A stretch of DNA of 42,681 nt from a virus (IMGVR_UViG_2718217863_000001), one strand, 5' to 3'. Numbered from the stretch's first letter, positions 9,744-36,416 are shown. Notes: generated from the letters alone by a model not told the origin. Numbers and translations: made by a program.

Positions 9744-10157
9744 TTACTCATACTTAACCGGCCACTCGATATCCGGTGCTTTGGAGATGTCAACGCGCAT
9801 AAGTAATACCCGGTATTTTTTCCACTCAGCTAAGGCGTTAATTTCTTCTGCGCTGGCAATTCCAGAATCAACAGCATCCTGTCGCCAGCAAATCTCAGAC
9901 TCTGCTTCGGTGCGTAATTCGCGTTGCATTTGCCCAGCCTGAGCGACCAGTTGTTTTGCAGACAGGGCTGGGATATCAACCCATACAGGATAACCATTTT
10001 TATCCGTCCCGAGCATTTTCTCTTTTGGTGGATACTGGCTATAAACAGCCATGACCTCATCGCTCACACTGGCGGCATTCTCCGGCCACGCTCCGGCAGA
10101 AATATATGCTTCTTTAAGTGCTTCCGGATAAAAAACACCCTGATAAAATTTATTCAT
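9744..10157 (-). CDS. Tail fibre assembly protein (Tfa, G-like)
   Basis: 137 aa from MNKFYQ; C-terminal motif WKKYRVLLMRVDISKAPDIEWP typical of Tfa; ATGA overlap with fibre gene stop. Confidence 0.75.
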   Translation of the reverse strand: MNKFYQGVFYPEALKEAYISAGAWPENAASVSDEVMAVYSQYPPKEKMLGTDKNGYPVWVDIPALSAKQLVAQAGQMQRELRTEAESEICWRQDAVDSGIASAEEINALAEWKKYRVLLMRVDISKAPDIEWPVKYE

Positions 10158-11329
10158 AAATACCCCACAGCAAAAAAACAACAGTCTTCCAACGAGCCGG
10201 CTGGGGCCCAGTTTTGAATACTAATTTGAGAACGATTAGCCAGCCGAACATTCATCGCCTGACTGTAACCCGTTGTTCCCCGACATCCCATTGCCCACAG
10301 GCCACCAGTTGGGAAAGCATAAGGCAGGTTGTAGATAGCATCTTCTCCTCCGCGTGTCTGAATGGTTCCCCATTGCAGCATTATCTTCACTGGGTTATCT
10401 GTGGTTGCAAGACAGGGAATGTATAAATAGCCATTTCCACTGGCGTAAAAAGTGAAATGTGATGCGCTCAATACCTGGTCCTTTCCAGTGCCCATTGACG
10501 CCAGCGCGGCCGAGCCAAGCTGCAGGGCATTCCTGAAAGCAGCCACATTAGAAATATCAGCGCCATTAGCTGATTTCTGCATCGCACCGGCAGCTTTATT
10601 TATCGTGTCTAAGAGACCGAGATTCTGTAAAAATAACGCCACATTGGGAATATCTGCGCCATTACGTTCTTTCGCCAGACGTGCATTCGCATTATCCATC
10701 ACTATTTTTACTGCTTTCAGTGTGGCAGCTATCAGTTCACTTTCGCTTGAAACACTATTACTAAGCCGCACAAATCCCTTTTCATCTAGCGTGGCGTCAG
10801 GGTGATTACGTGACCGCTCATGTGTGCGTAGCAAACTGTCAGCATAGGCTTTTACCTCGATAACCTTGTCGTCGACATACTGGCGCGTTGACAGCACGAC
10901 CGACGGGTCGATTTTTAAGGTGATTGCCGACGTGCTCGAGACAACAAGAATCATGCGAATGGTCTGCGTTCGACCGCTCCCCTCGGCCAGTAACGGCTTG
11001 TAGGTTTCCGGGCAGTTGGCGACAGCAATCAAAATGCCATCTTCATCATAAAGACCGATTTCACGGATGAAAAAACCGCCCTCATTTTCCGGGATAATTT
11101 GCTCGGCAATAATCTGACCGGCGTCGTTAGCATCCACGCTCAGTGAATTAATCGGCGCGATGCGGGTCTGGTTAATGAGTTTTGTCTGAGCCGGGTCAGG
11201 CGTCGGCAACGTGCCGTTACCATCACCAACAGCCATTTGTGTGATATTAAGTTTTGTACCGAGCATGGTCGCGTTTGCCAGTCGCACCGCGCCCTGATTG
11301 GTCAGGATGGCAAAATATTTTGTTGTCAT
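10154..11329 (-). CDS. H: Tail fibre protein (short H-like)
   Basis: 391 aa; N-terminal 200 aa resemble conserved gpH shaft (MAVGDG...ELGLYD...AVANCPETYKP); divergent C-terminus. Confidence 0.8.
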   Translation of the reverse strand: MTTKYFAILTNQGAVRLANATMLGTKLNITQMAVGDGNGTLPTPDPAQTKLINQTRIAPINSLSVDANDAGQIIAEQIIPENEGGFFIREIGLYDEDGILIAVANCPETYKPLLAEGSGRTQTIRMILVVSSTSAITLKIDPSVVLSTRQYVDDKVIEVKAYADSLLRTHERSRNHPDATLDEKGFVRLSNSVSSESELIAATLKAVKIVMDNANARLAKERNGADIPNVALFLQNLGLLDTINKAAGAMQKSANGADISNVAAFRNALQLGSAALASMGTGKDQVLSASHFTFYASGNGYLYIPCLATTDNPVKIMLQWGTIQTRGGEDAIYNLPYAFPTGGLWAMGCRGTTGYSQAMNVRLANRSQISIQNWAPAGSLEDCCFFAVGYL

Positions 11330-11937
11330 GCGCTTACTCGCAGGTTATCAATCAGATGAATGGCCGAAGCCGGATAAAACTCACCACCGACGACAATTTC
11401 CCCGGCGGCATAGGGATAAACGGTTAACAGGTCGCCGTCATAGCAGCTTGCGCCCACATAAGCGCGCCCAGTGGTGCTCAGGCTGATAGCTAGCCCGGTC
11501 AGGTGTCGGCTTGCCGGTTTTGCCCCTTCTATCAGGCGCTCGAGTTCGAGGTACATCTCATCGGTGATACCGGTCTCGAGTACGCCAACAACAAGCCGGA
11601 AAGTTCCGGGCTCTTCGTTGAGTTCCCACCACTCCTTAACCTCAATCAGATAGCCCAGCGGCTCCACCACGCGCCGTAAGGCGGCGATAGTGCCTTTGTG
11701 GGCATGGATGAAAAACGCCGAGGCGATGACGCTGCGTTTTGTCGCCTCCGGCCAGTTCTCATCCCACCGGTCAACCGAAAACGCCCACGCCAGATAGGGC
11801 AGCAGCCGCACCGGGCAGGTGCGCCAGTTCCACAATGTGCGAAGCGGAACCGGCACACGCTCGATATCTGCGGCCGCGCGGGCGGCGGCAACCTCCAGCA
11901 CCGACGAGCCAACGGGCAACAGCCGGTTATCACTCAT
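11326..11937 (-). CDS. I: Baseplate assembly protein I
   Basis: 203 aa from MSDNRLLPVGSS; start overlaps J stop; ORF-track start 12060 is an upstream in-frame extension inside J. Confidence 0.8.
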   Translation of the reverse strand: MSDNRLLPVGSSVLEVAAARAAADIERVPVPLRTLWNWRTCPVRLLPYLAWAFSVDRWDENWPEATKRSVIASAFFIHAHKGTIAALRRVVEPLGYLIEVKEWWELNEEPGTFRLVVGVLETGITDEMYLELERLIEGAKPASRHLTGLAISLSTTGRAYVGASCYDGDLLTVYPYAAGEIVVGGEFYPASAIHLIDNLRVSA

Positions 11938-12838
11938 CAGCACCCCCGTCAGCGATGCGGTATTCGGTGCAACAGGATGCCTGGTATTTACTGAGCACAA
12001 TGTCAGCCAGTGGCGCGGCCAGTTCGACACGCTGTACACCTTCAACGTGCAGGGCGGCATAGATGGCCGACTGGCGAATGTCGCGACCCAGTCGCTGTTG
12101 TGCGCTGATGTATGCCTTCAGTTTTTCCTCTGCGGCCTGACGGATTGGCTCGGCCTCCGGCCCCGGATAAAAATACAGCGTGGCGTCAATCTGATACGGC
12201 ACGATTTCAGCACTCTGCACCGTCACCCTGTCGCCAACCGGGCGCACCTCTTCAGCATTTAGTGCTTTTTCAACGATGGTCAGAAGTTCATCGGATGCGG
12301 TGCCATCATCCTCGCGTGACAGTACGGTGATGGTCACACAGGCCGGTGACGGGCTGACAACCGAGATATCAGCGACCCGACCGTCGGCGCTGCGCCCGTG
12401 GTATTCATATGCGCCGACCGGACCAGCCACGCTGAGCCCTTCATAAGCCTGTTGTGCGCGTAACCGTAAATCGGCATCAGATTCCATGACGGCGGGTGTT
12501 GGCGGGATAGTGCTGTCATCGGCTGGCGTCACAATCTGTCGCCCGGTGTTGTTGTTTCCGGCCATCACATCGAGGTCGTTATTACTCGCGTAAGCCAGTG
12601 TGCAGCTTTTCGCCGCATCGTTCACACGCTGACGCCAGATAACCTCCCGATAGGCGTTTTCCTCCAGATACTTCACCAGTGGATCAGACTCAAGGGCGAG
12701 AGTTCGCGCAACAGCGTCCTGTTGTTCTTCAGGGTAAAGCGAGACCAGCGTCGCTTTGCGTTCCGCGAGAATAGTTTCAAAATCCAGCGTTTCTACCACG
12801 TCAGGCGCGGGGAGCTGGCTCAGGTCGATGGTTGGCAT
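11930..12838 (-). CDS. J: Baseplate assembly protein J
   Basis: 302 aa; synteny W-J-I. Confidence 0.85.
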   Translation of the reverse strand: MPTIDLSQLPAPDVVETLDFETILAERKATLVSLYPEEQQDAVARTLALESDPLVKYLEENAYREVIWRQRVNDAAKSCTLAYASNNDLDVMAGNNNTGRQIVTPADDSTIPPTPAVMESDADLRLRAQQAYEGLSVAGPVGAYEYHGRSADGRVADISVVSPSPACVTITVLSREDDGTASDELLTIVEKALNAEEVRPVGDRVTVQSAEIVPYQIDATLYFYPGPEAEPIRQAAEEKLKAYISAQQRLGRDIRQSAIYAALHVEGVQRVELAAPLADIVLSKYQASCCTEYRIADGGADE

Positions 12839-12842
12839 AAAT

Positions 12843-13190
12843 TCAACTCACAGGAATAGTCAGTGACAGGGTTTTGCCGGTGTCCCGGGTCTCGCCGGTC
12901 AGCTCAACAATCATCTGACCGTTAAACTGACGTTCGACCGTCAGCGAGCTGATGCTGATGCGCGGCTCCCACTTCAGCAGCGCCATATAACAGGCGCACA
13001 TAATTTGCAGCCTCAGCGCGTCGGTCTGCGGCATATCAATCAGGGAGAACAGCAGCGAGCCATAATCGCGGCGCATCACGCGAGAGCCGACTGGCGTTCG
13101 CAAAATATCGCCACAGCTCTGACGGATGTGATCGGCGTCAGTGATGGCGAGCCCGGTCTCCCTGTTCATACCGATATAACGGGTCGTCAT
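12843..13190 (-). CDS. W: Baseplate assembly protein W (gp25-like)
   Basis: 115 aa; synteny. Confidence 0.85.
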   Translation of the reverse strand: MTTRYIGMNRETGLAITDADHIRQSCGDILRTPVGSRVMRRDYGSLLFSLIDMPQTDALRLQIMCACYMALLKWEPRISISSLTVERQFNGQMIVELTGETRDTGKTLSLTIPVS

Positions 13191-13828
13191 TTCGTGCCCT
13201 CCGTCCAGGCTCCACCCCTTTGCACACCGCCGTGACCGTGGTTGTCGACCTGAACGCCGTTTGATTTAAACGTACCGTCGATGTGTTCGATGTTTCCGCG
13301 CATGGTGCCGCCTTGTTGCACCTCAAGCGTCGCCGTCGTCAGTTTGTTGGTGCAGACCACTTCCGGGGTTTCGAGGGTGATGCGGGTCTCGGCTTTCACC
13401 GTCACCAGCGGTACCGTCGCGGTGATGGAATCCGACGCCGTAACATCTGCGGTTTTAATGCCGCTCACAGTCAGTGCGCCGGTCTCCGGCTCGTACTCGA
13501 TAACAGCCCCATCAGGAAAGGTGATGTGAAATGCATCAGCCGATGCCGACGGCCCGGGGTGGTCATCGGAGAAAATACCGGGCAACACAAAAGCGGTGTC
13601 GAGCTCACCACCGACGGCCAGCAGTAAAACCTGCTCACCCGCAGACGGAGCCCACCAGACACGTGAGCGACCGGCGCGCGTAGTCAGCCACTGAAGCCAG
13701 TCGGTAACAATGCCGCCAGTCTGGACGCGACAGCGCCCGTCATCGAGGTCAACTTCGACGACGACGCCGGTGCGTATCAGGTTGCGAAGGAGGCGTGAAA
13801 TTTCTTGTATACGTGATAATGTTGTCAT
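13187..13828 (-). CDS. V: Baseplate spike/assembly protein V
   Basis: 213 aa from MTTLSRIQEISRL; strong similarity to remembered P2 gpV; start chosen over upstream 13864 because of the promoter element. Confidence 0.8.
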   Translation of the reverse strand: MTTLSRIQEISRLLRNLIRTGVVVEVDLDDGRCRVQTGGIVTDWLQWLTTRAGRSRVWWAPSAGEQVLLLAVGGELDTAFVLPGIFSDDHPGPSASADAFHITFPDGAVIEYEPETGALTVSGIKTADVTASDSITATVPLVTVKAETRITLETPEVVCTNKLTTATLEVQQGGTMRGNIEHIDGTFKSNGVQVDNHGHGGVQRGGAWTEGTK

Positions 13829-13875
13829 AGACGTTAGAGTGCTAAATTTACCTACGAATGCCAAAGGCTAGGGGC

Positions 13876-13893
13876 TGTACCTTCGCTAGCACA
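13876..13893 (-). promoter_or_regulatory. Candidate Ogr/B-dependent late promoter element (TGT-N12-ACA) for the V operon
   Basis: Palindromic TGTaccttcgctagcACA about 50 bp upstream of the V start. Confidence 0.45.
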
Positions 13894-13943
13894 ACTTGTA
13901 GGCGGTTTTTATCGATATAAGTCTAAAAAAATGGATACAAAAA

Positions 13944-15029
13944 ATGGGAAACTCCAAACGCATTGCTTTTAGAATAGTTATTACGCTCAACAACAACTCA
14001 GCAACCGTCGTACCTGAATGTCATAATTTAAAATATAAGTTCTCCAGAAATCACACTGACAAACTAGAAATCACTGGAGATACCATCACAATATCCGGTA
14101 GCCGTTCTGGAAAGCCTAATCTCGATGAAATATTCACCAATAATCAAAGCGAGGTTTATTTTCAGGTAATTAAATCATATATTTATTACTGCGTCGCGAA
14201 TGGCAACATATTTAAAATATTGAAAATAGAATGTCATAATAACGACGACGCCATCGATAAAGTATACTCTGGTGATGAGATACGAAATCTCAACGTGTCA
14301 AACAATGCACCAAATATAAGAAAGATAAACAAGGCAAAAGCGGCAATAATTTTTGAGGCCACGCCTGAAAGTAATAAATACCTGTACGCTATGAGCACAT
14401 TAATCCGTTCACTTTGTAGTGACGACAATAACGACATTTTCGAAAAAATATGGAAGTCCTATAACTCAATTTACCGAGTCATCAGCAATGAAAAGCAAGA
14501 GGTTGAATGTCTTAATGAAATGGGGAGGGAGATAATAAGCAACCCTGCAAACTACCCTCTTTCTGTAAATGCCGCTCAAGCCATTTCGGGTAATGATATA
14601 TCGGATTCCACTCGGTGGTGGAGGATGTTAGAGAATAAATTCATCATACGAGGAAATAAAAAAACTCGAGAAAATAATTTCTCTACCTTCCTTACTCAAT
14701 ATCAAGACTTTCGATTAAATGAAGTATCTCAGAGGAACGTTGATATTGAAAAAAACTTTTGGACCAACTCCAACCTAAAAACCACAACAATAAATGACAT
14801 TGCAAATAAAATAAATAACAACCAAAGAAATGATGCCGAAGTAGTTGATGCAATTTGTAATCATTACGCCTACTTCCTTAGAAATAAAACCCTGCATGGA
14901 GATCAAACAGATCATTCTTTCAGGTTCATACCCTATAACAAAGAAGAGAAAACATTGAAATTCACCTCGAATATTTTGTTTTTACTGGTGTGCGACCTGA
15001 TAAATAGCCACACACTCCAGACAAGTTAA
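13944..15029 (+). CDS. Orphan 361-aa AT-rich moron protein of unknown function (candidate defence/abortive-infection gene; possible HEPN-like Rx4H motif)
   Basis: Long ORF on the strand opposite all flanking late genes; Asn/Lys/Ile-rich composition unlike neighbours; sits at the V/S junction where P2 carries an accessory ORF; motif RNKTLH near C-terminus. Confidence 0.7.
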   Translation: MGNSKRIAFRIVITLNNNSATVVPECHNLKYKFSRNHTDKLEITGDTITISGSRSGKPNLDEIFTNNQSEVYFQVIKSYIYYCVANGNIFKILKIECHNNDDAIDKVYSGDEIRNLNVSNNAPNIRKINKAKAAIIFEATPESNKYLYAMSTLIRSLCSDDNNDIFEKIWKSYNSIYRVISNEKQEVECLNEMGREIISNPANYPLSVNAAQAISGNDISDSTRWWRMLENKFIIRGNKKTRENNFSTFLTQYQDFRLNEVSQRNVDIEKNFWTNSNLKTTTINDIANKINNNQRNDAEVVDAICNHYAYFLRNKTLHGDQTDHSFRFIPYNKEEKTLKFTSNILFLLVCDLINSHTLQTS

Positions 15030-15034
15030 ATTGA

Positions 15035-15484
15035 TTAGATATCGAAGCCCTTGGCTATTATAACTTCAATAATAGCCAAGTCGTCACTCTGGAAACCTAA
15101 CAATGGTCGGGCATCATACTGTACCGGCGTACTGTTTCGCCCGGGCTTATCCTTGAGGCCGTACTGATGCACATTCGCCATCCGTTGTACTTTACCGGTA
15201 AATTCCACGACCGCCGCGTCATTCCCCGCCGTAGCTTTCATAAAGCGACTGGTGCGGAGTTTGGCGAACATTTCCCGCTTAACCCGGCCTTTTTTGGCTT
15301 TTACCGGCTGGCGTTTTCGGGCGGCGTAAGGTGTCCCGTCCGGGGCTTTCTGCGTTTTAATCCGGCGCTGTTGACGGGCTCGCAGGGTCTTCGCGATATC
15401 TGCGGCCATTCTGCGACGGGCAGCAGGTGACAGCGCCGCTATCAGCCCCGCGAGCTTATCGTCAAAGGGTTTAAAGTCATTCAT
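15035..15484 (-). CDS. S: Tail completion protein S
   Basis: 149 aa; synteny R-S. Confidence 0.8.
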   Translation of the reverse strand: MNDFKPFDDKLAGLIAALSPAARRRMAADIAKTLRARQQRRIKTQKAPDGTPYAARKRQPVKAKKGRVKREMFAKLRTSRFMKATAGNDAAVVEFTGKVQRMANVHQYGLKDKPGRNSTPVQYDARPLLGFQSDDLAIIEVIIAKGFDI

Positions 15485-15944
15485 GCAAGCGACTCACGAG
15501 CTCACCGTTAACATACAGTTCAACTGGCCGGGTAACGGGCTCCGGCGGCTGCGGCTCTTCAGCCTGTTCGACGTGGAGCTTATCCCCCTGCTCTTTAACG
15601 ATAGTGCGCTCGGTCAGCATCAGGCTGATACTGATATCGGTGCTGTCGTTGTCGTTGATATCGGCAAAATAGGTGAATCCCTTTTTACGCCCTTCATCGG
15701 TCGTCATAATGTCAGCCTGATGGATGCGCAACCATGCCTGAATCGGGACGAGTAACAGCTCGATATCATCCGTGAAATCGGTCACCACCACATTAAGCGT
15801 GTACCGGTTCTCAAACGACAGCGACGTCGCCAGCGTCGAGGCAAGATTCCCGTTGTCGATAAAGACACGCATCATATCGGGGTTTCGTGCCAGCACCGGC
15901 ACAGCGTCAGTTAAGGCTTTTCGCAGACTCTTCGGCTTGTACAT
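15477..15944 (-). CDS. R: Tail completion protein R
   Basis: 155 aa; close match to remembered P2 gpR (TDEG.KKGFT...ISISLMLTERT...PVTRP.ELYVNGELVS). Confidence 0.85.
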   Translation of the reverse strand: MYKPKSLRKALTDAVPVLARNPDMMRVFIDNGNLASTLATSLSFENRYTLNVVVTDFTDDIELLLVPIQAWLRIHQADIMTTDEGRKKGFTYFADINDNDSTDISISLMLTERTIVKEQGDKLHVEQAEEPQPPEPVTRPVELYVNGELVSRLHE

Positions 15945-16197
15945 CGATTCTATCCTGACAGTTTTTTATTGTTCTGACCTGAAGCGCACAGCGCTCGAGG
16001 GCGCTTTCGAGCTGGCGTATATCCGCGCTCAGGTCGCCATTGGTGGTCGGGTCACTTCCCGGCATCGGGCAAAGACTGACCCTCGGGCATGCGTTGTAAA
16101 CAATCACCGGCGTCGGCACAGGCGGCGCGCTGGTGCAACCGGCGCACAGCATCAGGCAAATCAGCGCTATACCAGCGGCGAAGTTGTTCGTTTTCAT
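15907..16197 (-). CDS. lysC: Outer-membrane spanin LysC (Rz1-like lipoprotein)
   Basis: 96 aa from MKTNNFAAGIALICLMLCAGC (lipobox), Pro-rich periplasmic part; embedded in lysB 3' region in another frame. Confidence 0.7.
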   Translation of the reverse strand: MKTNNFAAGIALICLMLCAGCTSAPPVPTPVIVYNACPRVSLCPMPGSDPTTNGDLSADIRQLESALERCALQVRTIKNCQDRIDVQAEESAKSLN

Positions 16198-16349
16198 TGA
16201 GTAACCTCGTAATGGTCTGTTCCCGGCGTTGCGCCCGCGCTCCGGCATCGATGAGCTCACCGCGCAGTAAGACCTGAGCGGTCTCATTTTCCTCACGGAT
16301 ACGGGAGGCCGTTTTAAGCTGGCTTTTCAGCATGGTAATCACCGTTTTT
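16052..16349 (-). pseudogene. lysB: Inner-membrane spanin LysB, 3' fragment (gene split by IS insertion)
   Basis: Coiled-coil periplasmic portion without N-terminal TMD; N-terminal residues of the ORF-track protein are read-through from the IS end. Confidence 0.65.
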
Positions 16350-16441
16350 TGTTCACTGCGTATTACCGTGAAGGAGATCGGTGAGTAACATCGATGGAGA
16401 TCGGTTCGTGTCACTTTCACAGAACCGTTTTTAAATTACCT

Positions 16442-17191
16442 TCACTGATCTCCTTCGGTCAACGGAGATTGTATTTTCCGCATTGATTCTCCTTTAAGTT
16501 CGATCTTGATACTGCCATGAACCAGTCGATCTAGGATGGCATCCGCATGTGTGGAGTCTCCGATCATTTTGTACCAGTTTTCCACCGGCAACTGGCTCAC
16601 TACGATGATTGAGCCTCGTTGGTACATCAGATCCACTATTTCCAGCAGGTCGCTACGCTGTTCTGATGAGAGAGGTTCCAGCCCCCAGTCATCCAGAAGC
16701 AGCAGATCGCTATTATTCAGCCTGGTCAAAAGTTTGCTGTATCTTCCATCAGCATGCCCCTGATAGCACTGTTCCATCAGCGCTTTAAGGCGATAATAGT
16801 AGACCTTGTATCCCTGTCGGCAGGCATTATGACCAAGTGCACATGCCAGGAACGTTTTACCGCTGCCGGTGGCCCCGGTCAGTAAAATATTTTGTTTCAG
16901 GGTTAACCAGTTTCCCTGACTGAGTGAACGGATGAGGGCCCTGTCCAGCCCTCTATTGTTACGATAATCCAGCTTTGATAACTCAGCATTAAGTCTGAAC
17001 CGTGCATGTTTGATCAGACGCTCTGCCTTCCTGTTTTCACGGCAGGTTAGTTCTTCTGCTGTCAGTAATGACAGGCGTTCTTCGAAGCCCAGCTCCTGGT
17101 ATGTGCCCGGCTGAGCAAGTTGCTTTTTAAGCGCATCACGGAAGCCGGTGAGTTTAAGTGCGGTCAGTTGTTCGTAAAGATGATTCATCAT
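16442..17191 (-). CDS. istB: IS21-family helper ATPase IstB
   Basis: 249 aa; Walker A GATGSGKT; IstB-like. Confidence 0.9.
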   Translation of the reverse strand: MMNHLYEQLTALKLTGFRDALKKQLAQPGTYQELGFEERLSLLTAEELTCRENRKAERLIKHARFRLNAELSKLDYRNNRGLDRALIRSLSQGNWLTLKQNILLTGATGSGKTFLACALGHNACRQGYKVYYYRLKALMEQCYQGHADGRYSKLLTRLNNSDLLLLDDWGLEPLSSEQRSDLLEIVDLMYQRGSIIVVSQLPVENWYKMIGDSTHADAILDRLVHGSIKIELKGESMRKIQSPLTEGDQ

Positions 17192-17202
17192 TGGATCCCG
17201 TA

Positions 17203-18744
17203 TCAGTGGTAATACTCACTGCCGCGTACGTTTTCGTGTTCCATCGTGGATAACAGATCTGGTTTTGGATCCTGAACAGGTTGTTTATCCAGACCTTTTT
17301 CCAGGATCGATTTAATACCTGACAGACGCCATACCTTTGTTTTCAGAGCTCTTGCACATGCTGCATTAAGTCTGGCTTTACTGTATTTTTTATGAAGGTT
17401 CAGGAGTCCAAGGCAGAAGCGATAGCTTTGTTCCGGATGTGGACGAGAGTTCAGTATATGAAGCACATAACTATGAGTTTCACTGCCTATGTGCCCCGCC
17501 CATTCCAGAAGACGCTCTGGCGTCCAGGTGGCATGCTGTCGATGAGCTTCAGGCATGTGCTCGTTGCGGGTACTGTAGCCATAAGTACGCTTGCGCGGGT
17601 GCACAGCAACCTCCTGCCCCTGATTGAAGAGTCTTACCAGTTCTCCGGAGATCCATGCTTCCAGTTGCTGGCCTAACAGCGAACATGGAACCGAGTAGTA
17701 ATGTTTGTCGATTTCCACGTGGTAATCGGCATGAACTCTGACTTTCTTCACCAGGGTGTAACTGTAACTGGCTTCAGGAAGAGGCTTCAGTGCGGGTTTA
17801 TCAAGCTGGATGAAGAGTTCTGCACGTGAATAACCCAACTTCTGCATTATTTTGTTATTCAGTCTTTCCAGCAACTCCCGAATGCGCTGATTAAGCGATG
17901 CAAGGCTGTAGAAGATCTCATGCCTGATTCGGGCCATGATCCAGCGTTCAACAACCTGAACGCCAACTTCAGCTTTGGCTTTATCTTTCGGTTTACGTGG
18001 CCGCGCAGGCAAAACTGCGACATTATAATGCTCAAGCATCTGCTGGTAGGTAGGGTTAACGTCAGGATCATACTTACATGCCCTGGATGTGGCGCTTTTC
18101 AGATTGTCCGGAACAACAAGTTCAGGAACGCCACCCAACCACTGGAAGCAGCGAACATGACTCATCACCCAGTCTTCAAGCTGCTGAGACCAGGTGGCCT
18201 CTGCCCATGTGTAACTTGATGCCCCGAGAACAGCTACGATGACCTGAGCAGTTCTTATTTCTCCGGTCTCAGGGTCGGTAACGCCAACGGTAGGTCCACA
18301 GTAATCAACGAAAAGTTTTTCGCCAGCTTTATGTACCTGACGCATTGATGGTGAAGTGGTTTTGAGCCATTCACGGTACATCCGGCAGTAATGGTTATAG
18401 CTGTAAAAACCGCCTGGATTACGCTCACAGTATTCTTCCCAGAGTAGCTGCAGCGTCACGCATTTATTACGCAGTTCCCGGTGTACTGTAGCCCAGTCAG
18501 GCAGAGAGTGCTTCTTCATCTTAACCTGGGTCTGAAGGAACGCATGTTTTAGTTTTGTATCATCCCATCCTGTAGGTAAGGGCCACTGCTTTATGCCAAG
18601 TTGAGCCGCCCGATTAGCATATCTGGATACAACGGAAGGGGAGATTGCAAGACTACGACCAATTTGTCGATGGCTGAGTCCAACACCGTATTTAAGCCTA
18701 AGAATTTCTTTAAGTTTTCTCATAGAAATTGGAACTGTTGGCAT
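17203..18744 (-). CDS. istA: IS21-family transposase IstA
   Basis: 513 aa; N-terminal HTH, DDE integrase core; upstream of istB. Confidence 0.9.
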   Translation of the reverse strand: MPTVPISMRKLKEILRLKYGVGLSHRQIGRSLAISPSVVSRYANRAAQLGIKQWPLPTGWDDTKLKHAFLQTQVKMKKHSLPDWATVHRELRNKCVTLQLLWEEYCERNPGGFYSYNHYCRMYREWLKTTSPSMRQVHKAGEKLFVDYCGPTVGVTDPETGEIRTAQVIVAVLGASSYTWAEATWSQQLEDWVMSHVRCFQWLGGVPELVVPDNLKSATSRACKYDPDVNPTYQQMLEHYNVAVLPARPRKPKDKAKAEVGVQVVERWIMARIRHEIFYSLASLNQRIRELLERLNNKIMQKLGYSRAELFIQLDKPALKPLPEASYSYTLVKKVRVHADYHVEIDKHYYSVPCSLLGQQLEAWISGELVRLFNQGQEVAVHPRKRTYGYSTRNEHMPEAHRQHATWTPERLLEWAGHIGSETHSYVLHILNSRPHPEQSYRFCLGLLNLHKKYSKARLNAACARALKTKVWRLSGIKSILEKGLDKQPVQDPKPDLLSTMEHENVRGSEYYH

Positions 18745-18943
18745 AGGTATCCTTTACCGGAATGGCAAAAGATACAGATCAACACACCTGTGAAGTTCCA
18801 ATAACATTGATGGAGATCACTGAATAACAAAATGAGTCAAAAGTGATCTCCATCGATGTTATTCAGCGATCTGTTCAAATGTTATTACCCGATCTCGATG
18901 GAAGTTATTGAGTGATCTCCTTTCATGAAAATACGCAGTTCAC

Positions 18944-19052
18944 CGGCGACTTTATTCGCCCGCTCAAAGGAACGGGTCAGACTGGTGTTTTCGTGCCGCA
19001 TCCAGAGCAGCCCGGCCACGGCCAGCACTAACAACACGACTATCGTTTTCAT
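18944..19052 (-). pseudogene. lysB: Inner-membrane spanin LysB, 5' fragment (N-terminal TMD)
   Basis: MKTIVVLLVLAVAGLLWMRHENTSLTRSFERANKVAG... ATG overlaps endolysin stop (ATGA); runs into IS end. Confidence 0.65.
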
Positions 19053-19558
19053 TTCGCCCCCTTCAGGCAGTAAGTACGCTCGCGAAAGCGGCGGTTTTCG
19101 AGCCCGGTATTACGCTCACCATTCACAAACACCCAGCGGGTAAGCTGGTCACAGGCCTGCCACCATTGCCGGTGTTTCAGGTGATACACCAGCGTCGAGC
19201 GACAGGCCGCGCCGGTGCCGACGTTAAAAGCGAAGCTGACCAGCGCGTCATAGACGGCGGGTGGCATGTCCACCGGCACACAGACCGCGAGTCGTTTCTC
19301 GACGTTCAGCACGTCGGCGACCAGATTCGCGGCGGCTTCCTTCTCGGTGATATCCCGTTTCGGTACCACCCCGGCAGTGTGGCCGATGCCTGACGTCCAC
19401 ACACCCGCGCTGCACTGGTAAGGACGCAACCGGCACCCCTCGAGGTCGGCAATCAGCGCGAGCCCCTCCGGCGAGGTGTGAAGCAAACGAAAATCAGGCA
19501 CCAGTGCCGCCAGCGCCAGCACGACGGCCACACTGCAACGTTTAACGAATGAGCCCAC
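19049..19558 (-). CDS. K: Endolysin, phage lysozyme (GH24-type) with N-terminal SAR-like hydrophobic segment
   Basis: E-x8-C/D-x5-T lysozyme-type motif (EGCRLRPYQCSAGVWTSGIGHT); hydrophobic N-terminus; likely GTG start at 19558 (the ATG-extended ORF to 19663 overlaps holin by 120 nt). Confidence 0.75.
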   Translation of the reverse strand: MGSFVKRCSVAVVLALAALVPDFRLLHTSPEGLALIADLEGCRLRPYQCSAGVWTSGIGHTAGVVPKRDITEKEAAANLVADVLNVEKRLAVCVPVDMPPAVYDALVSFAFNVGTGAACRSTLVYHLKHRQWWQACDQLTRWVFVNGERNTGLENRRFRERTYCLKGAK

Positions 19559-19763
19559 GAATAACCCCCTTATCAATCCCCATCGAGACGAGATAGCGGT
19601 ATTTCTTTCGCTGGTACCAGAAGTTAACCAGCGCGGTAAAAATGGCGCAGCTTCCCCCGACATAAAGCGCGAGCCGTTCCGGTGTCTGCGTACCGAAATA
19701 CGCCAGCACCACTGACAGCCAGTAGGTCAGAAAGGTTGTGATTTTATCCACAGTCAGTCCCAT
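19542..19763 (-). CDS. Y: Holin (Y-like)
   Basis: 73 aa with two hydrophobic helices and charged C-terminus; immediately upstream of endolysin. Confidence 0.75.
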   Translation of the reverse strand: MGLTVDKITTFLTYWLSVVLAYFGTQTPERLALYVGGSCAIFTALVNFWYQRKKYRYLVSMGIDKGVIRGLIR

Positions 19764-26799: not shown

Positions 26800-28017
26800 T
26801 TAATTAGCTTTATCAAGGCGTCCCCCCACCACCATCCGCTTGTAATTTATTGCGAACAACTTAAGTTTTTCAGGGAACTTTGACGCCAAAATTATTGACT
26901 TTCTGTCTACATATGAATAAAAGGGCATTGATATCAAAATAGTTATCATCGAAGTTAAGATAAATGTAACAAACGCACCAACGGACGGCGACGCAATGTT
27001 TTTGTAAACCCAAAAACCAACTATAGATATAACAAATGGATGAAGCAAGTATATTGAAAATGACAACCTCCCAATAAACAAGACTACATTTTTGCTCATC
27101 CCCCTTAAACATCTCCCATTCACAAAGACAGAAGCAATAATCAAAAAAGAACCAAGCGATATTGTAAACTCTGGCCATTGTATTAATATATCGCATTGAA
27201 ACTGAAGGTAGAGGTAAAATTCAACCAGATCTTTATACGCAGTGCTCGCCGGTGCATACCCAACAAGATAAAGGCCAATAAACAACATAAGAAGCGATAC
27301 AAGCTTTCTTAACCGTCCATTATTTTCACTTATCTCGAAAGTTGATAAAAACACACCAGAAAGGAAAAGCCCATAATAAATTATATTAATACTACCAGAC
27401 AAAAACATACAAACAAATGAAATAAATGACAACCAGCGAAGAATGGTCTTGTTCTCACCAAACAGAGATATAAATCCGTATACCAATATAGAACCAAAAA
27501 ACTCAATACTAATAGTCCACAGAACATAGTTATACTTTATATTACCAAAAAGCATAGCGCCAAATGAAGCATCCCATATGGCTGACACTATATTCCCATC
27601 AAAACTAAACGCAGTCATTAACGGCATTGATGCAGCGGGGCTATCCTTATCCGGAAAAAAGCCCAACAACATTATAAAATAGCAAATAATCACAGATGCT
27701 GCTACGGGAACCCCAAGCCTAATGTATCTCTTCAATGCTGATGCTTGTATATAGCGTATTTCGTTATTATTTTTTTGGCAACTCAGTGACAAAACCAACC
27801 CGCTCAAAACAAAGAATAAGCTAACAGCAGATCCCCCCTTATAGAAAAAAGTAAAAGGGCTATTAAATAAATTTTCTTGCCACTTGCTATCAAACATACT
27901 GCCAGAATGCACCGAAGGTATAAACATTAAAAATGAATGCGATAAAACGACAGCCATGGCTGCCACACCTCTTATCCCATCAAAGATTTTTACATTATTT
28001 CTCTCATTATCACTCAT
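26800..28017 (-). CDS. Acyltransferase family 3 integral membrane protein (OafA/Oac-like O-acetyltransferase), cargo gene
   Basis: 405 aa, about 10 predicted TM helices; N-terminal GIRGVAAMAVVLSH motif characteristic of acyltransferase-3 family; very AT-rich. Confidence 0.8.
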   Translation of the reverse strand: MSDNERNNVKIFDGIRGVAAMAVVLSHSFLMFIPSVHSGSMFDSKWQENLFNSPFTFFYKGGSAVSLFFVLSGLVLSLSCQKNNNEIRYIQASALKRYIRLGVPVAASVIICYFIMLLGFFPDKDSPAASMPLMTAFSFDGNIVSAIWDASFGAMLFGNIKYNYVLWTISIEFFGSILVYGFISLFGENKTILRWLSFISFVCMFLSGSINIIYYGLFLSGVFLSTFEISENNGRLRKLVSLLMLFIGLYLVGYAPASTAYKDLVEFYLYLQFQCDILIQWPEFTISLGSFLIIASVFVNGRCLRGMSKNVVLFIGRLSFSIYLLHPFVISIVGFWVYKNIASPSVGAFVTFILTSMITILISMPFYSYVDRKSIILASKFPEKLKLFAINYKRMVVGGRLDKAN

Positions 28018-28631
28018 GCAAAAAACCTTTTATAATAAAAAATGTCATTTCGATTAACGTATTGGTTATTATTGTGTTATAACTGACAACCAACCTTAAA
28101 AAAACGCGGCATTATAGCACCTTAAGCCTGTTGTATGAATATCATTATTGTTTTGACAGGAAGAGTTCCGTTTACGCCCCACCTAACCTTCGGAGCACTG
28201 AGTAGTGCTCCCAATGAGGTTGGAATAAGGGGAGATTCAAAAAATAGCTGACCATTCTATGCAAGCAACCCAACTACCAGCATACAACTTGTTTTTTCTC
28301 GCAACTTACTCAGCCTTTGTTAATCGTTCTTCAGCATGGGTTGCAGAGAAAACTAGTGAAAAGGAGTTATTTTTCATCAAGTTGCCTCTCACTATTTCTG
28401 CAATCAAATTCAATGCGATTTCACGGTCTCTTTCCTTACAAGTCCCTTCAGCCGTTAGACGCGCAATCATTTCGACTCGCTCAATCATAACGTGCTCACT
28501 TAATTCTCTATCCACACAACCTCCACAACGAGATACTGTATAAACATACAGTAACACGTATTGATAAAAAATGTGAAGGAAAAAAACCAATAAATACACT
28601 GTATGTGCATGATATGGATGAATATTAACGG

Positions 28632-34662: not shown

Positions 34663-36126
34663 TCATTTGCCGAGCATCTCTCTTAAATCTTGAGCCCAAT
34701 GCGTATCGTCAGATTGGATCGTTCCTTCAACATCAGTAAGCAGTTTTTGCTCAAGAATTGTCTCGGCATTTCGACTCTGGCTAAAGTATCTTACCGTTTC
34801 GGCAAAGTCCCAATTCTCATCTGCAAGCAGGCGCGGCTGGAAAGAATGACAGTAGATTGCAGCTATATCTTTACCCATAAAGTCAAAATCAGAAATCAAT
34901 TCGCAAATTTTCATATCACGTGCAAATTCGATCTGAGGGCCATGCAAGGTTTCATATCCAATATGAATTATTGTTGATTCTCCAATCGGAGCCTGCTTTA
35001 CAGCCTGAACAAGTACCCTTTTTATATCTTTTGCCTTTTTATCGACAGACTCATCAGCGAGACAAATCCATTTTGCGCAGAAAGGCATTTCTATCTCATC
35101 AATGAATACATTTATTGTACTAAGTTCATCATTGCTAAAAGTGCATAACTTTGCGTTGCAAACCATTGTATAACTTCCAAACGGGTCATACTGGTCATCT
35201 AATAAGGAATTTAATTGAGGAGAAGGATATTTCACATGCCACTTTCTTAAGTGGTTATCCACCCGTTCCATATCAATTAAGTTAGCCTGAACCAAAATAT
35301 CATCGCTCTCACATACTGCAATCTTACCTTTCACAAGATGATCAGAGCCGTAAATTTTTGCTACAGCACCGAGAAACACATCGATACGCGTTTTTACTAT
35401 TTCAGTTTTGAAAATCACATCAAAAAAAACTGGCTTATGGTATCGAGTAATCAATGGTCGAGCCATTTCCCACCGCTTCAACCACTCCGCCCTTTCTTCT
35501 TCTGAGTACTGAGTCACCTTTGCTAATCGCTTGCACTCAACATAAAAAATATCAGTGCCTTTAACAACTTTGAGGTCTGGTGTTTTATGAGCTCCTGTTT
35601 CTGGAATGAACTCAACTTCCCAGCCATTTTTCAAATAGCAGATAGCCACAACCAACTCAAACAAAATGGAATCAGGCTGGTTGATTGTCTTAACAAGCAA
35701 GTCATTTAATTTGGATTCAATACCTTTGACCTGCTTCAACTTTTCGCTATGTTCACCGATAACTGCGAAAAAATGCCAAATTCTTGACGACTGAGCTGGC
35801 TCATCTACTGTTGGGCGATCAGCCAAAGATTCAACTAAGTACAAATACCATGCAATCCAGTCATCATAGAATGCCAGGCGTGCATCTTTCTCATGGAAAG
35901 AAACGTCAGATTTTCCTGTGAAAAGGCGCTCCGACATTTCGCGGAAGTAAGCCAAAACCGCCCCACGACGCTCAACCCATTTATCTTCACCCATTACATC
36001 AATAAACCAACGGTATGCTGTTTTTATCTCTTTGACTAATGGGGCATCATGTCTATGATTGAAGCGTTCAAAAAATGCAGCATACTCATCTTCAACACTC
36101 TGATTTTTGGTATTTTTTTCACCCAT
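34663..36126 (-). CDS. Orphan 487-aa protein with PD-(D/E)xK nuclease-like core (candidate defence nuclease); alternative start 36159
   Basis: Motif TPDLKVV-x9-YVECKRL (D-x13-ExK) after hydrophobic strand LFELVVAICYL; GGTGGA RBS 7 nt before ATG at 36126; lies between int and attR; AT-richer than backbone. Confidence 0.7.
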   Translation of the reverse strand: MGEKNTKNQSVEDEYAAFFERFNHRHDAPLVKEIKTAYRWFIDVMGEDKWVERRGAVLAYFREMSERLFTGKSDVSFHEKDARLAFYDDWIAWYLYLVESLADRPTVDEPAQSSRIWHFFAVIGEHSEKLKQVKGIESKLNDLLVKTINQPDSILFELVVAICYLKNGWEVEFIPETGAHKTPDLKVVKGTDIFYVECKRLAKVTQYSEEERAEWLKRWEMARPLITRYHKPVFFDVIFKTEIVKTRIDVFLGAVAKIYGSDHLVKGKIAVCESDDILVQANLIDMERVDNHLRKWHVKYPSPQLNSLLDDQYDPFGSYTMVCNAKLCTFSNDELSTINVFIDEIEMPFCAKWICLADESVDKKAKDIKRVLVQAVKQAPIGESTIIHIGYETLHGPQIEFARDMKICELISDFDFMGKDIAAIYCHSFQPRLLADENWDFAETVRYFSQSRNAETILEQKLLTDVEGTIQSDDTHWAQDLREMLGK

Positions 36127-36370
36127 CGTGATTCCACCTAGCTTATGCGGTTTATGCATTCAAGATTAACTAACTTGCATGTTATCATTTTTGATATCAG
36201 GCAAGTGTTAGTCACGCTATAAAGGCTAGGTTGCCGTTTAAAGGCAATATGATAAGTGGCGATAAAGTGGCGGTAGAAATGGCTGATAATGTCTAATCAC
36301 TGGCAAACGCTGGCCATTTATGTCAATGATAAATAAAGCAAACTATTGATTTTCGGTTGTTCAGGTAGGA

Positions 36371-36416
36371 ACTCATAATCGCCTGGTCGCTGGTTCAAGT
36401 CCAGCAAGGGCCACCA
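36371..36416 (+). repeat. attR: displaced partial 3' end of tRNA-Ile2 (direct repeat of 2843-2888)
   Basis: 46-nt match with 2 mismatches; lacks 5' half of tRNA. Confidence 0.75.

Follow-up and report, generated by a model that had tools for sequence, protein, structure and literature searches.

The stretch of DNA analyzed here, IMGVR_UViG_2718217863_000001 (42,681 nt; hereafter, the window), contains a P2/186-like (Peduoviridae) prophage integrated in a tRNA-Ile gene, and the i-spanin gene of this prophage, lysB, is split by a complete copy of ISEc12, an insertion sequence (IS) of the IS21 family. The element occupies positions 16357-18937 on the minus strand (2581 bp; ends 5'-TGCGTATT...AATACGCA-3') and is transcribed in the direction of the phage late genes. 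Over positions 1-2581 it is 100% identical to E. coli chromosomal and plasmid copies, which the NCBI Prokaryotic Genome Annotation Pipeline (PGAP) names "IS21-like element ISEc12 family"; ISEc12 is present in 1909 of 5426 complete E. coli genomes and in 978 plasmid records. An earlier note on this DNA had placed an IS21-family element in lysB, a reading upheld by family models, by the full identity to ISEc12 and by an exact match of the empty site to intact loci. The extent that it assigned, 16350-19052, is too wide: the ends given above were set by the empty-site comparison and by nine other 2581-bp copies.

Between the two parts of lysB lie istA and istB, as the earlier note had proposed, each identified by an NCBIfam match above its cut-off and by Pfam matches. 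The genes are consecutive and co-oriented, with the istA stop at 17203 and the istB start at 17191 or 17188. istA (17203-18744, minus strand) encodes a 513-aa IS21-family DDE transposase (NF033546 transpos_IS21, 310.5 bits against a cut-off of 160; Pfam rve, 2.7e-10, and Mu-transpos_C_2, 2.6e-16; PGAP accession WP_001298859.1). istB (16442-17191, minus strand), a 249-aa open reading frame (ORF), encodes an AAA+ helper ATPase (PF01695 IstB_IS21, 2.2e-67; NF038214, 270 bits against a cut-off of 200), for which PGAP chooses the start at 17188 and a 248-aa product (WP_001016257.1).

The termini of the element are TG...CA, and the outer 8 bp of TGCGTATT and AATACGCA are identical, with imperfect similarity farther inward. 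The 6-bp sequence GTTCAC abuts both exact IS ends as a perfect direct repeat, with copies at 16351-16356 (lysB 3' side) and 18938-18943 (lysB 5' side); with a slash at the junction, the left side reads ...TTTTTT GTTCAC / TGCGTATTACCGTGAAGGAGATC... and the right side ...GATCTCCTTTCATGAAAATACGCA / GTTCAC CGGCGAC.... Both the direct repeat and the overlap at the empty site mark GTTCAC as the target-site duplication, the lengths taken for the IS21 family being 4-8 bp, so that a clean duplication does exist where none had been recognized before. The same 6 bp account for an error in the terminal inverted repeats: these are present at the IS ends, as claimed, but the 10-bp ACTGCGTATT proposed for them is 2 bp too long and was rejected in favor of the 8-bp match TGCGTATT because its outer 2 bp belong to the duplication, which starts with GT and ends with AC. 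Although ISEc12 more commonly makes 5-bp duplications, that length was also rejected, since the fixed 2581-bp ends fit 6 bp and not 5; a second copy with a 6-bp duplication lies in another P2-like prophage (locus L003).

Reiterated subterminal repeats had been noticed at both ends, and six of the seven window matches to GGAGATCRNTNNRTAAC (at most two mismatches) do fall within ~130 bp of the IS ends. The istA-proximal end (18799-18937, minus strand) combines the terminal inverted repeat with repeats of the GGAGATC..RTAAC type, of which three direct copies (18904-18920, 18881-18897 and 18858-18874) and one inverted copy (18812-18828) were scored; visual inspection and the repeat pairs revealed a further one at ~18842-18858. 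At the istB-proximal end (16357-16458, plus strand), the terminal inverted repeat is accompanied by direct repeats at 16373-16389 and 16396-16412 and by an inverted copy at ~16441-16456, which overlaps the istB stop codon. Such reiterated repeats are the usual end structure of the IS21 family and are thought to be IstA-binding sites. The prototype, IS21 of plasmid R68.45 (~2.1 kb, with a 4-bp duplication), shares with the window copy the istA-istB layout, the TG...CA ends, the subterminal repeats at both ends and a short target-site duplication; it is nevertheless a different element from ISEc12, and a tandem (IS21)2-type junction is absent at the window copy.

ISEc12 entered lysB at codon 39. 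The 5' fragment (codons 1-38; 18938-19052, minus strand; start codon at 19052, MKTIVVLLVLAVAGLLW...) matches positions 2-37 of the LysB equivalog model TIGR03495 and keeps the N-terminal transmembrane segment, to judge from the hydrophobic residues 3-17 (TIVVLLVLAVAGLLW); its open frame continues into the IS as far as a stop at 18885 and specifies a 55-aa product of 38 native and 17 IS-encoded residues. The 3' fragment (codons 39-137; 16052-16356, minus strand) matches TIGR03495 positions 45-135 (103.6 bits) and corresponds to the periplasmic domain without a membrane anchor. Its translation might restart at a GTG (16420, within the IS) or an ATG (16333), and the periplasmic domain would be producible only from internal starts of this kind, then lacking any export or anchor signal. 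These TIGR03495 matches agree with the assignment of 18944-19052 and 16052-16349 to the two parts of lysB in the earlier note. RefSeq/PGAP lists at the locus istA, istB, a lysB pseudogene "missing C-terminus" and a 93-aa "LysB" 3' remnant; the insertion is thus already visible in public annotation.

The comparison with uninterrupted genes is decisive. We rebuilt the empty site in silico by deleting the IS and one copy of GTTCAC and searched the resulting 1414 nt against E. coli genomes: at least 25 complete genomes match it at 100% in a single ungapped piece, and in these lysB is annotated by PGAP as intact. The rebuilt LysB, of 137 aa, scores 142.2 bits with TIGR03495 (cut-off 92.75) over profile positions 2-135 of 135. 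Because the empty site matches uninterrupted loci exactly, the 6-bp duplication is proven. The earlier note had proposed comparison with an intact lysB from a related prophage, and one such partner is provided by strain 675SK2, whose prophage is collinear with the window, with 0 mismatches in block 1-16356 and 4 mismatches in block 18938-39703; the two aligned blocks overlap by exactly 6 bp at the uninterrupted locus. Given this collinearity and the near absence of mismatches, the insertion is recent and is essentially the sole difference from the 675SK2 prophage.

The window sequence is that of E. coli MRSN346595 (NZ_CP018109.1, 2898779-2941459, reverse complement) or of one of its three sister isolates, and the insertion junctions are found only in four of the 5426 complete genomes, namely, MRSN346595, 346355, 346638 and 352231. 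These carriers are serial mcr-1-positive sequence type 617 (ST617) isolates from one patient, described in a report that mentions neither ISEc12 nor the window prophage (PMC5404521). Multi-copy repeats such as ISEc12 are of the type that can confuse assemblers, and one could imagine that a copy was mis-placed into a lysB that is truly intact. However, the 4001-nt junction region is identical (100%) in all four genomes, each independently assembled, and a mis-join would not create a perfect 6-bp duplication flanking exact IS ends; we regard an assembly artefact as barely credible. There is no evidence that contradicts the insertion itself.

We therefore consider it highly probable that the locus records a single recent transposition of ISEc12 into codon 39 of lysB in a P2/186-like prophage of E. 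coli ST617, an instance of ordinary prophage decay. In entering lysB, ISEc12, with its IstA DDE transposase and IstB AAA+ target-capture ATPase, duplicated GTTCAC and split LysB into a 55-aa membrane stub and an anchorless periplasmic domain; lysC, R and S are untouched, downstream and co-directional. As predicted from the coding sequence, and as the earlier note had anticipated, the i-spanin is almost certainly null, because the 5' product is a stub carrying 17 IS residues and the 3' part has no anchor. Two-component spanins need both subunits, and a knock-out of either blocks release unless the cells are sheared (PMC6139136); the two-component spanin of this prophage would thus be non-functional. 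In spanin knock-outs, the holin and endolysin are still lethal, but outer-membrane rupture is blocked and the cells become fragile spheres; in shaken flasks, such mutants still lyse unless divalent cations are added (PMC6139136). Since spanin loss leaves the lethality of the holin and endolysin in place, "conditionally release-defective" is a better description of the prophage than "lysis-defective," the term suggested before. Upon induction, the holin and endolysin would still be expected to kill the cell, and outer-membrane disruption and release would fail unless the cells were sheared.

Effects on the downstream genes may add to this defect. In P2, R and S form the end of an operon that starts at O, and the IS accordingly sits between the operon promoter and lysC, R and S. 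Expression of these three genes would then depend on read-through across the 2.6-kb element and may drop, adding a defect in tail completion; polarity, for example Rho-dependent in untranslated stretches, is plausible and, like the tail defect, had reasonably been suggested in the earlier note. Two points weigh against a severe outcome. A simple consensus scan, which is weak evidence either way, detected nothing resembling an intrinsic terminator on the sense strand within the element, and the three genes may continue to be expressed by read-through. In addition, P2 lysB mutants, reportedly described by Ziermann et al. in 1994, are said only to delay lysis in shaken culture.

Whether ISEc12 shows any predilection for such loci bears on how the insertion is to be viewed. 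Eight further co-oriented records of other P2-like prophages carry ISEc12 within ~2.5 kb of lysC-R-S. This first list held co-oriented cases only, which was suspected to be an artefact of joining hit pieces, and a query with an artificially inverted IS returned 18 records with the opposite orientation near lysC-R-S; a co-orientation bias was rejected on these counts (18 opposite versus 8). In the inspected P2-like prophages (loci L002, L003 and L006-L011), which represent independent sites and events, ISEc12 lies in lysA (two sites, both orientations), R, S (two sites), J and the spacer downstream of S. Of the other prophage copies with a duplication, six have one of 5 bp and two have one of 6 bp, and no obvious target consensus emerged among the inspected prophage copies. 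At L006 (strain 163), a lysB 3' remnant and a truncated replication gene directly abut the same ISEc12 copy on either side, and a duplication is lacking; this arrangement points to an IS-mediated deletion or rearrangement. With no orientation bias and no single hot spot, the pattern resembles the routine build-up of insertion sequences in prophage DNA that is dispensable.

Similar events are on record. In E. coli ST131 clade C, ISEc12 interrupts tssM with a 5-bp duplication (PMC10711316); the same istA/istB proteins, a knock-out by simple insertion and a short duplication are common to both cases, which differ in the target (here, prophage lysB) and in the length of the duplication (here, 6 bp versus 5 bp). 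Burkholderia phage KS5 carries an ISBmu2-like element inside its P2-like genome (PMC3091744). Like the other ISEc12-bearing P2-like prophages, KS5 resembles the window prophage in having an IS within a P2-like genome, at a different site and through an independent event; KS5 is still a viable phage.

The insertion could conceivably do more than inactivate lysB. In the lysogen, transcription of lysC, R and S might originate in ISEc12, whether as read-through starting at the istAB promoter or at a hybrid, outward-facing promoter located at the istB end; alternatively, the insertion might have been selected as a "domestication" that blocks release and keeps the cargo. Such a role would suit an IS that is co-oriented with the late genes, has no sense-strand terminator-like site between istB and lysC, resides in a prophage with low-GC cargo genes possibly worth keeping for the host, and recurs in the late regions of P2-like prophages. 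Yet the consensus scan, again weak evidence either way, revealed no promoter-like site at the IS/lysB junction, and the only minus-strand promoter-like site that it returned (16820-16793) is below chance, 1 found versus 4.6 expected. The presence of ISEc12 in both orientations near lysC-R-S, at many sites, is better explained by neutral insertions than by selection, and the insertion is restricted to one patient's strain. On balance, a role of this kind seems highly improbable.

Framed more broadly, a non-neutral insertion could (i) act as a host-beneficial "lock" on release, and perhaps on tail completion, with immunity and cargo kept, (ii) cause IS-driven constitutive synthesis of LysC and the tail-completion proteins, or (iii) reflect a preference of ISEc12 for P2-like late operons. 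A crude estimate sets ~30 records with ISEc12 within ~2.5 kb of lysC-R-S against a few predicted for random placement, a figure uncorrected for clonality and for purifying selection elsewhere. We hold this family of ideas to be very unlikely as well and prefer decay by a single recent transposition. So interpreted, the locus is an ordinary, already annotated IS knock-out in one strain lineage that matters little beyond correct annotation, one more IS-inactivated prophage, albeit in a clinically tracked mcr-1 ST617 strain. It offers a possible reason for absent or poor particle release by a P2/186-like prophage with a seemingly complete gene set. The exact ends and the 6-bp duplication provide a clean PCR (polymerase chain reaction) marker for the lineage, and the isogenic pair of interrupted and intact prophages (the latter, e.g., in 675SK2) would be a natural system for studies of spanin loss and of IS polarity in a P2-like late operon.

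Elsewhere in the lysis cassette, an intact lysC (15907-16197, minus strand), which encodes the o-spanin lipoprotein (NF038368 P2_Rz1, 128 bits against a cut-off of 27; PF23793 LysC, 2.6e-16), lies in the +1 frame, overlaps the 3' end of lysB and the start of R, and begins 160 bp downstream of the IS; MKTNNFAAGIALICLMLCAGC in LysC reads as a lipoprotein-type signal. The start that PGAP assigns to lysC is an internal Met (MLCAGC...) and would drop most of that signal; position 16197, farther upstream (MKTNNFAAG...), seems the likelier start. Directly upstream of lysB, with a 4-bp overlap, is an endolysin gene of the phage lysozyme family (19049-19558, minus strand; PF00959, 4.5e-37; PGAP lysozyme WP_000534554.1), a homologue of which in Klebsiella phage RCIP0057 is annotated as a signal-anchor-release (SAR) endolysin. 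The weakly hydrophobic N-terminal segment KRCSVAVVLALAALV and an E-8aa-C-5aa-T motif suggest that the window enzyme is a candidate SAR-type endolysin. Preceding it is a 73-aa ORF (19542-19763, minus strand) with a weak, below-cut-off match to the HP1 holin family (PF16080, 7.8e-4); its position between X and the endolysin gene and its holin-annotated homologues in Yersinia phages make it a probable holin gene.

Downstream of the insertion, the tail completion gene R (15477-15944, minus strand; PF06891, 1.1e-43) and S (15035-15484, minus strand; PF05069, 1.1e-33) are both intact; S, which follows R, is a gene of tail/virion morphogenesis. No homologue of lysA is present in the cassette. P2 LysB and LysC are equivalents of lambda Rz and Rz1, and P2 lysC overlaps R (PMC3091744). 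The window cassette conforms to this scheme: rebuilt LysB fits the LysB equivalog and LysC fits P2_Rz1, and the genes follow the endolysin gene in an overlapped architecture in which lysC, in the +1 frame, runs into R. It differs from that of P2 in the missing lysA, in the SAR-type endolysin candidate that takes the place of P2 K, and in the interrupted i-spanin gene.

In the PGAP table, the P2 late order is present as Q P / O N M L X holin lysozyme lysB lysC R S and continues as V W J I H G / FI FII E E' T U D ogr; further prophage genes are int, CI, CII, Fil and replication gene A. The att core is probably a 23-bp direct repeat, TGGTCGCTGGTTCAAGTCCAGCA, with one copy at 2856-2878, in the 3' part of the tRNA-Ile gene (2813-2888), and the other at 36384-36406. 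The prophage between the repeats measures ~33.5 kb with the IS and ~30.9 kb without it. The genomes of P2 and 186 are ~33.6 kb and ~30.6 kb, respectively, and from these sizes we infer that the added 2.6 kb need not block packaging.

Two ORFs stand out by their composition, and neither had a match in the PADLOC, Pfam and NCBIfam scans. A 361-aa ORF at 13944-15029 (plus strand; GC content 0.36 versus ~0.55 in neighboring late genes) is encoded between S and V on the strand opposite to theirs, where P2 has orf30, and is listed by PGAP as "hypothetical protein"; we consider it a candidate moron or defence cargo gene. Other P2-like prophages (L008, L009 and L011) have a different hypothetical gene in the S-V slot. 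A 498-aa ORF at 34663-36159 (minus strand; GC content 0.40) lies between the integrase gene and the att repeat at 36384-36406, hence inside the prophage.

A perfect LexA-box consensus, CTGTATAAACATACAG, is present at 28536-28551, just upstream of a short DinI/Tum-like ORF (28306-28599, minus strand) that PGAP records as partial ("missing C-terminus") and that is followed by a low-GC acyltransferase gene (26800-28017; GC content 0.36). The truncation of the DinI/Tum-like ORF makes the SOS inducibility of the prophage uncertain, a consideration that matters for mitomycin C induction; the same truncation occurs in 675SK2, the relative with an intact lysB. The chromosomal flanks carry a ypjA/ehaD autotransporter pseudogene with an internal stop (39433-42681, plus strand) and a gene for an alpha-amylase-family glycosyl hydrolase (1-2253, minus strand), the latter being frameshifted in 675SK2.

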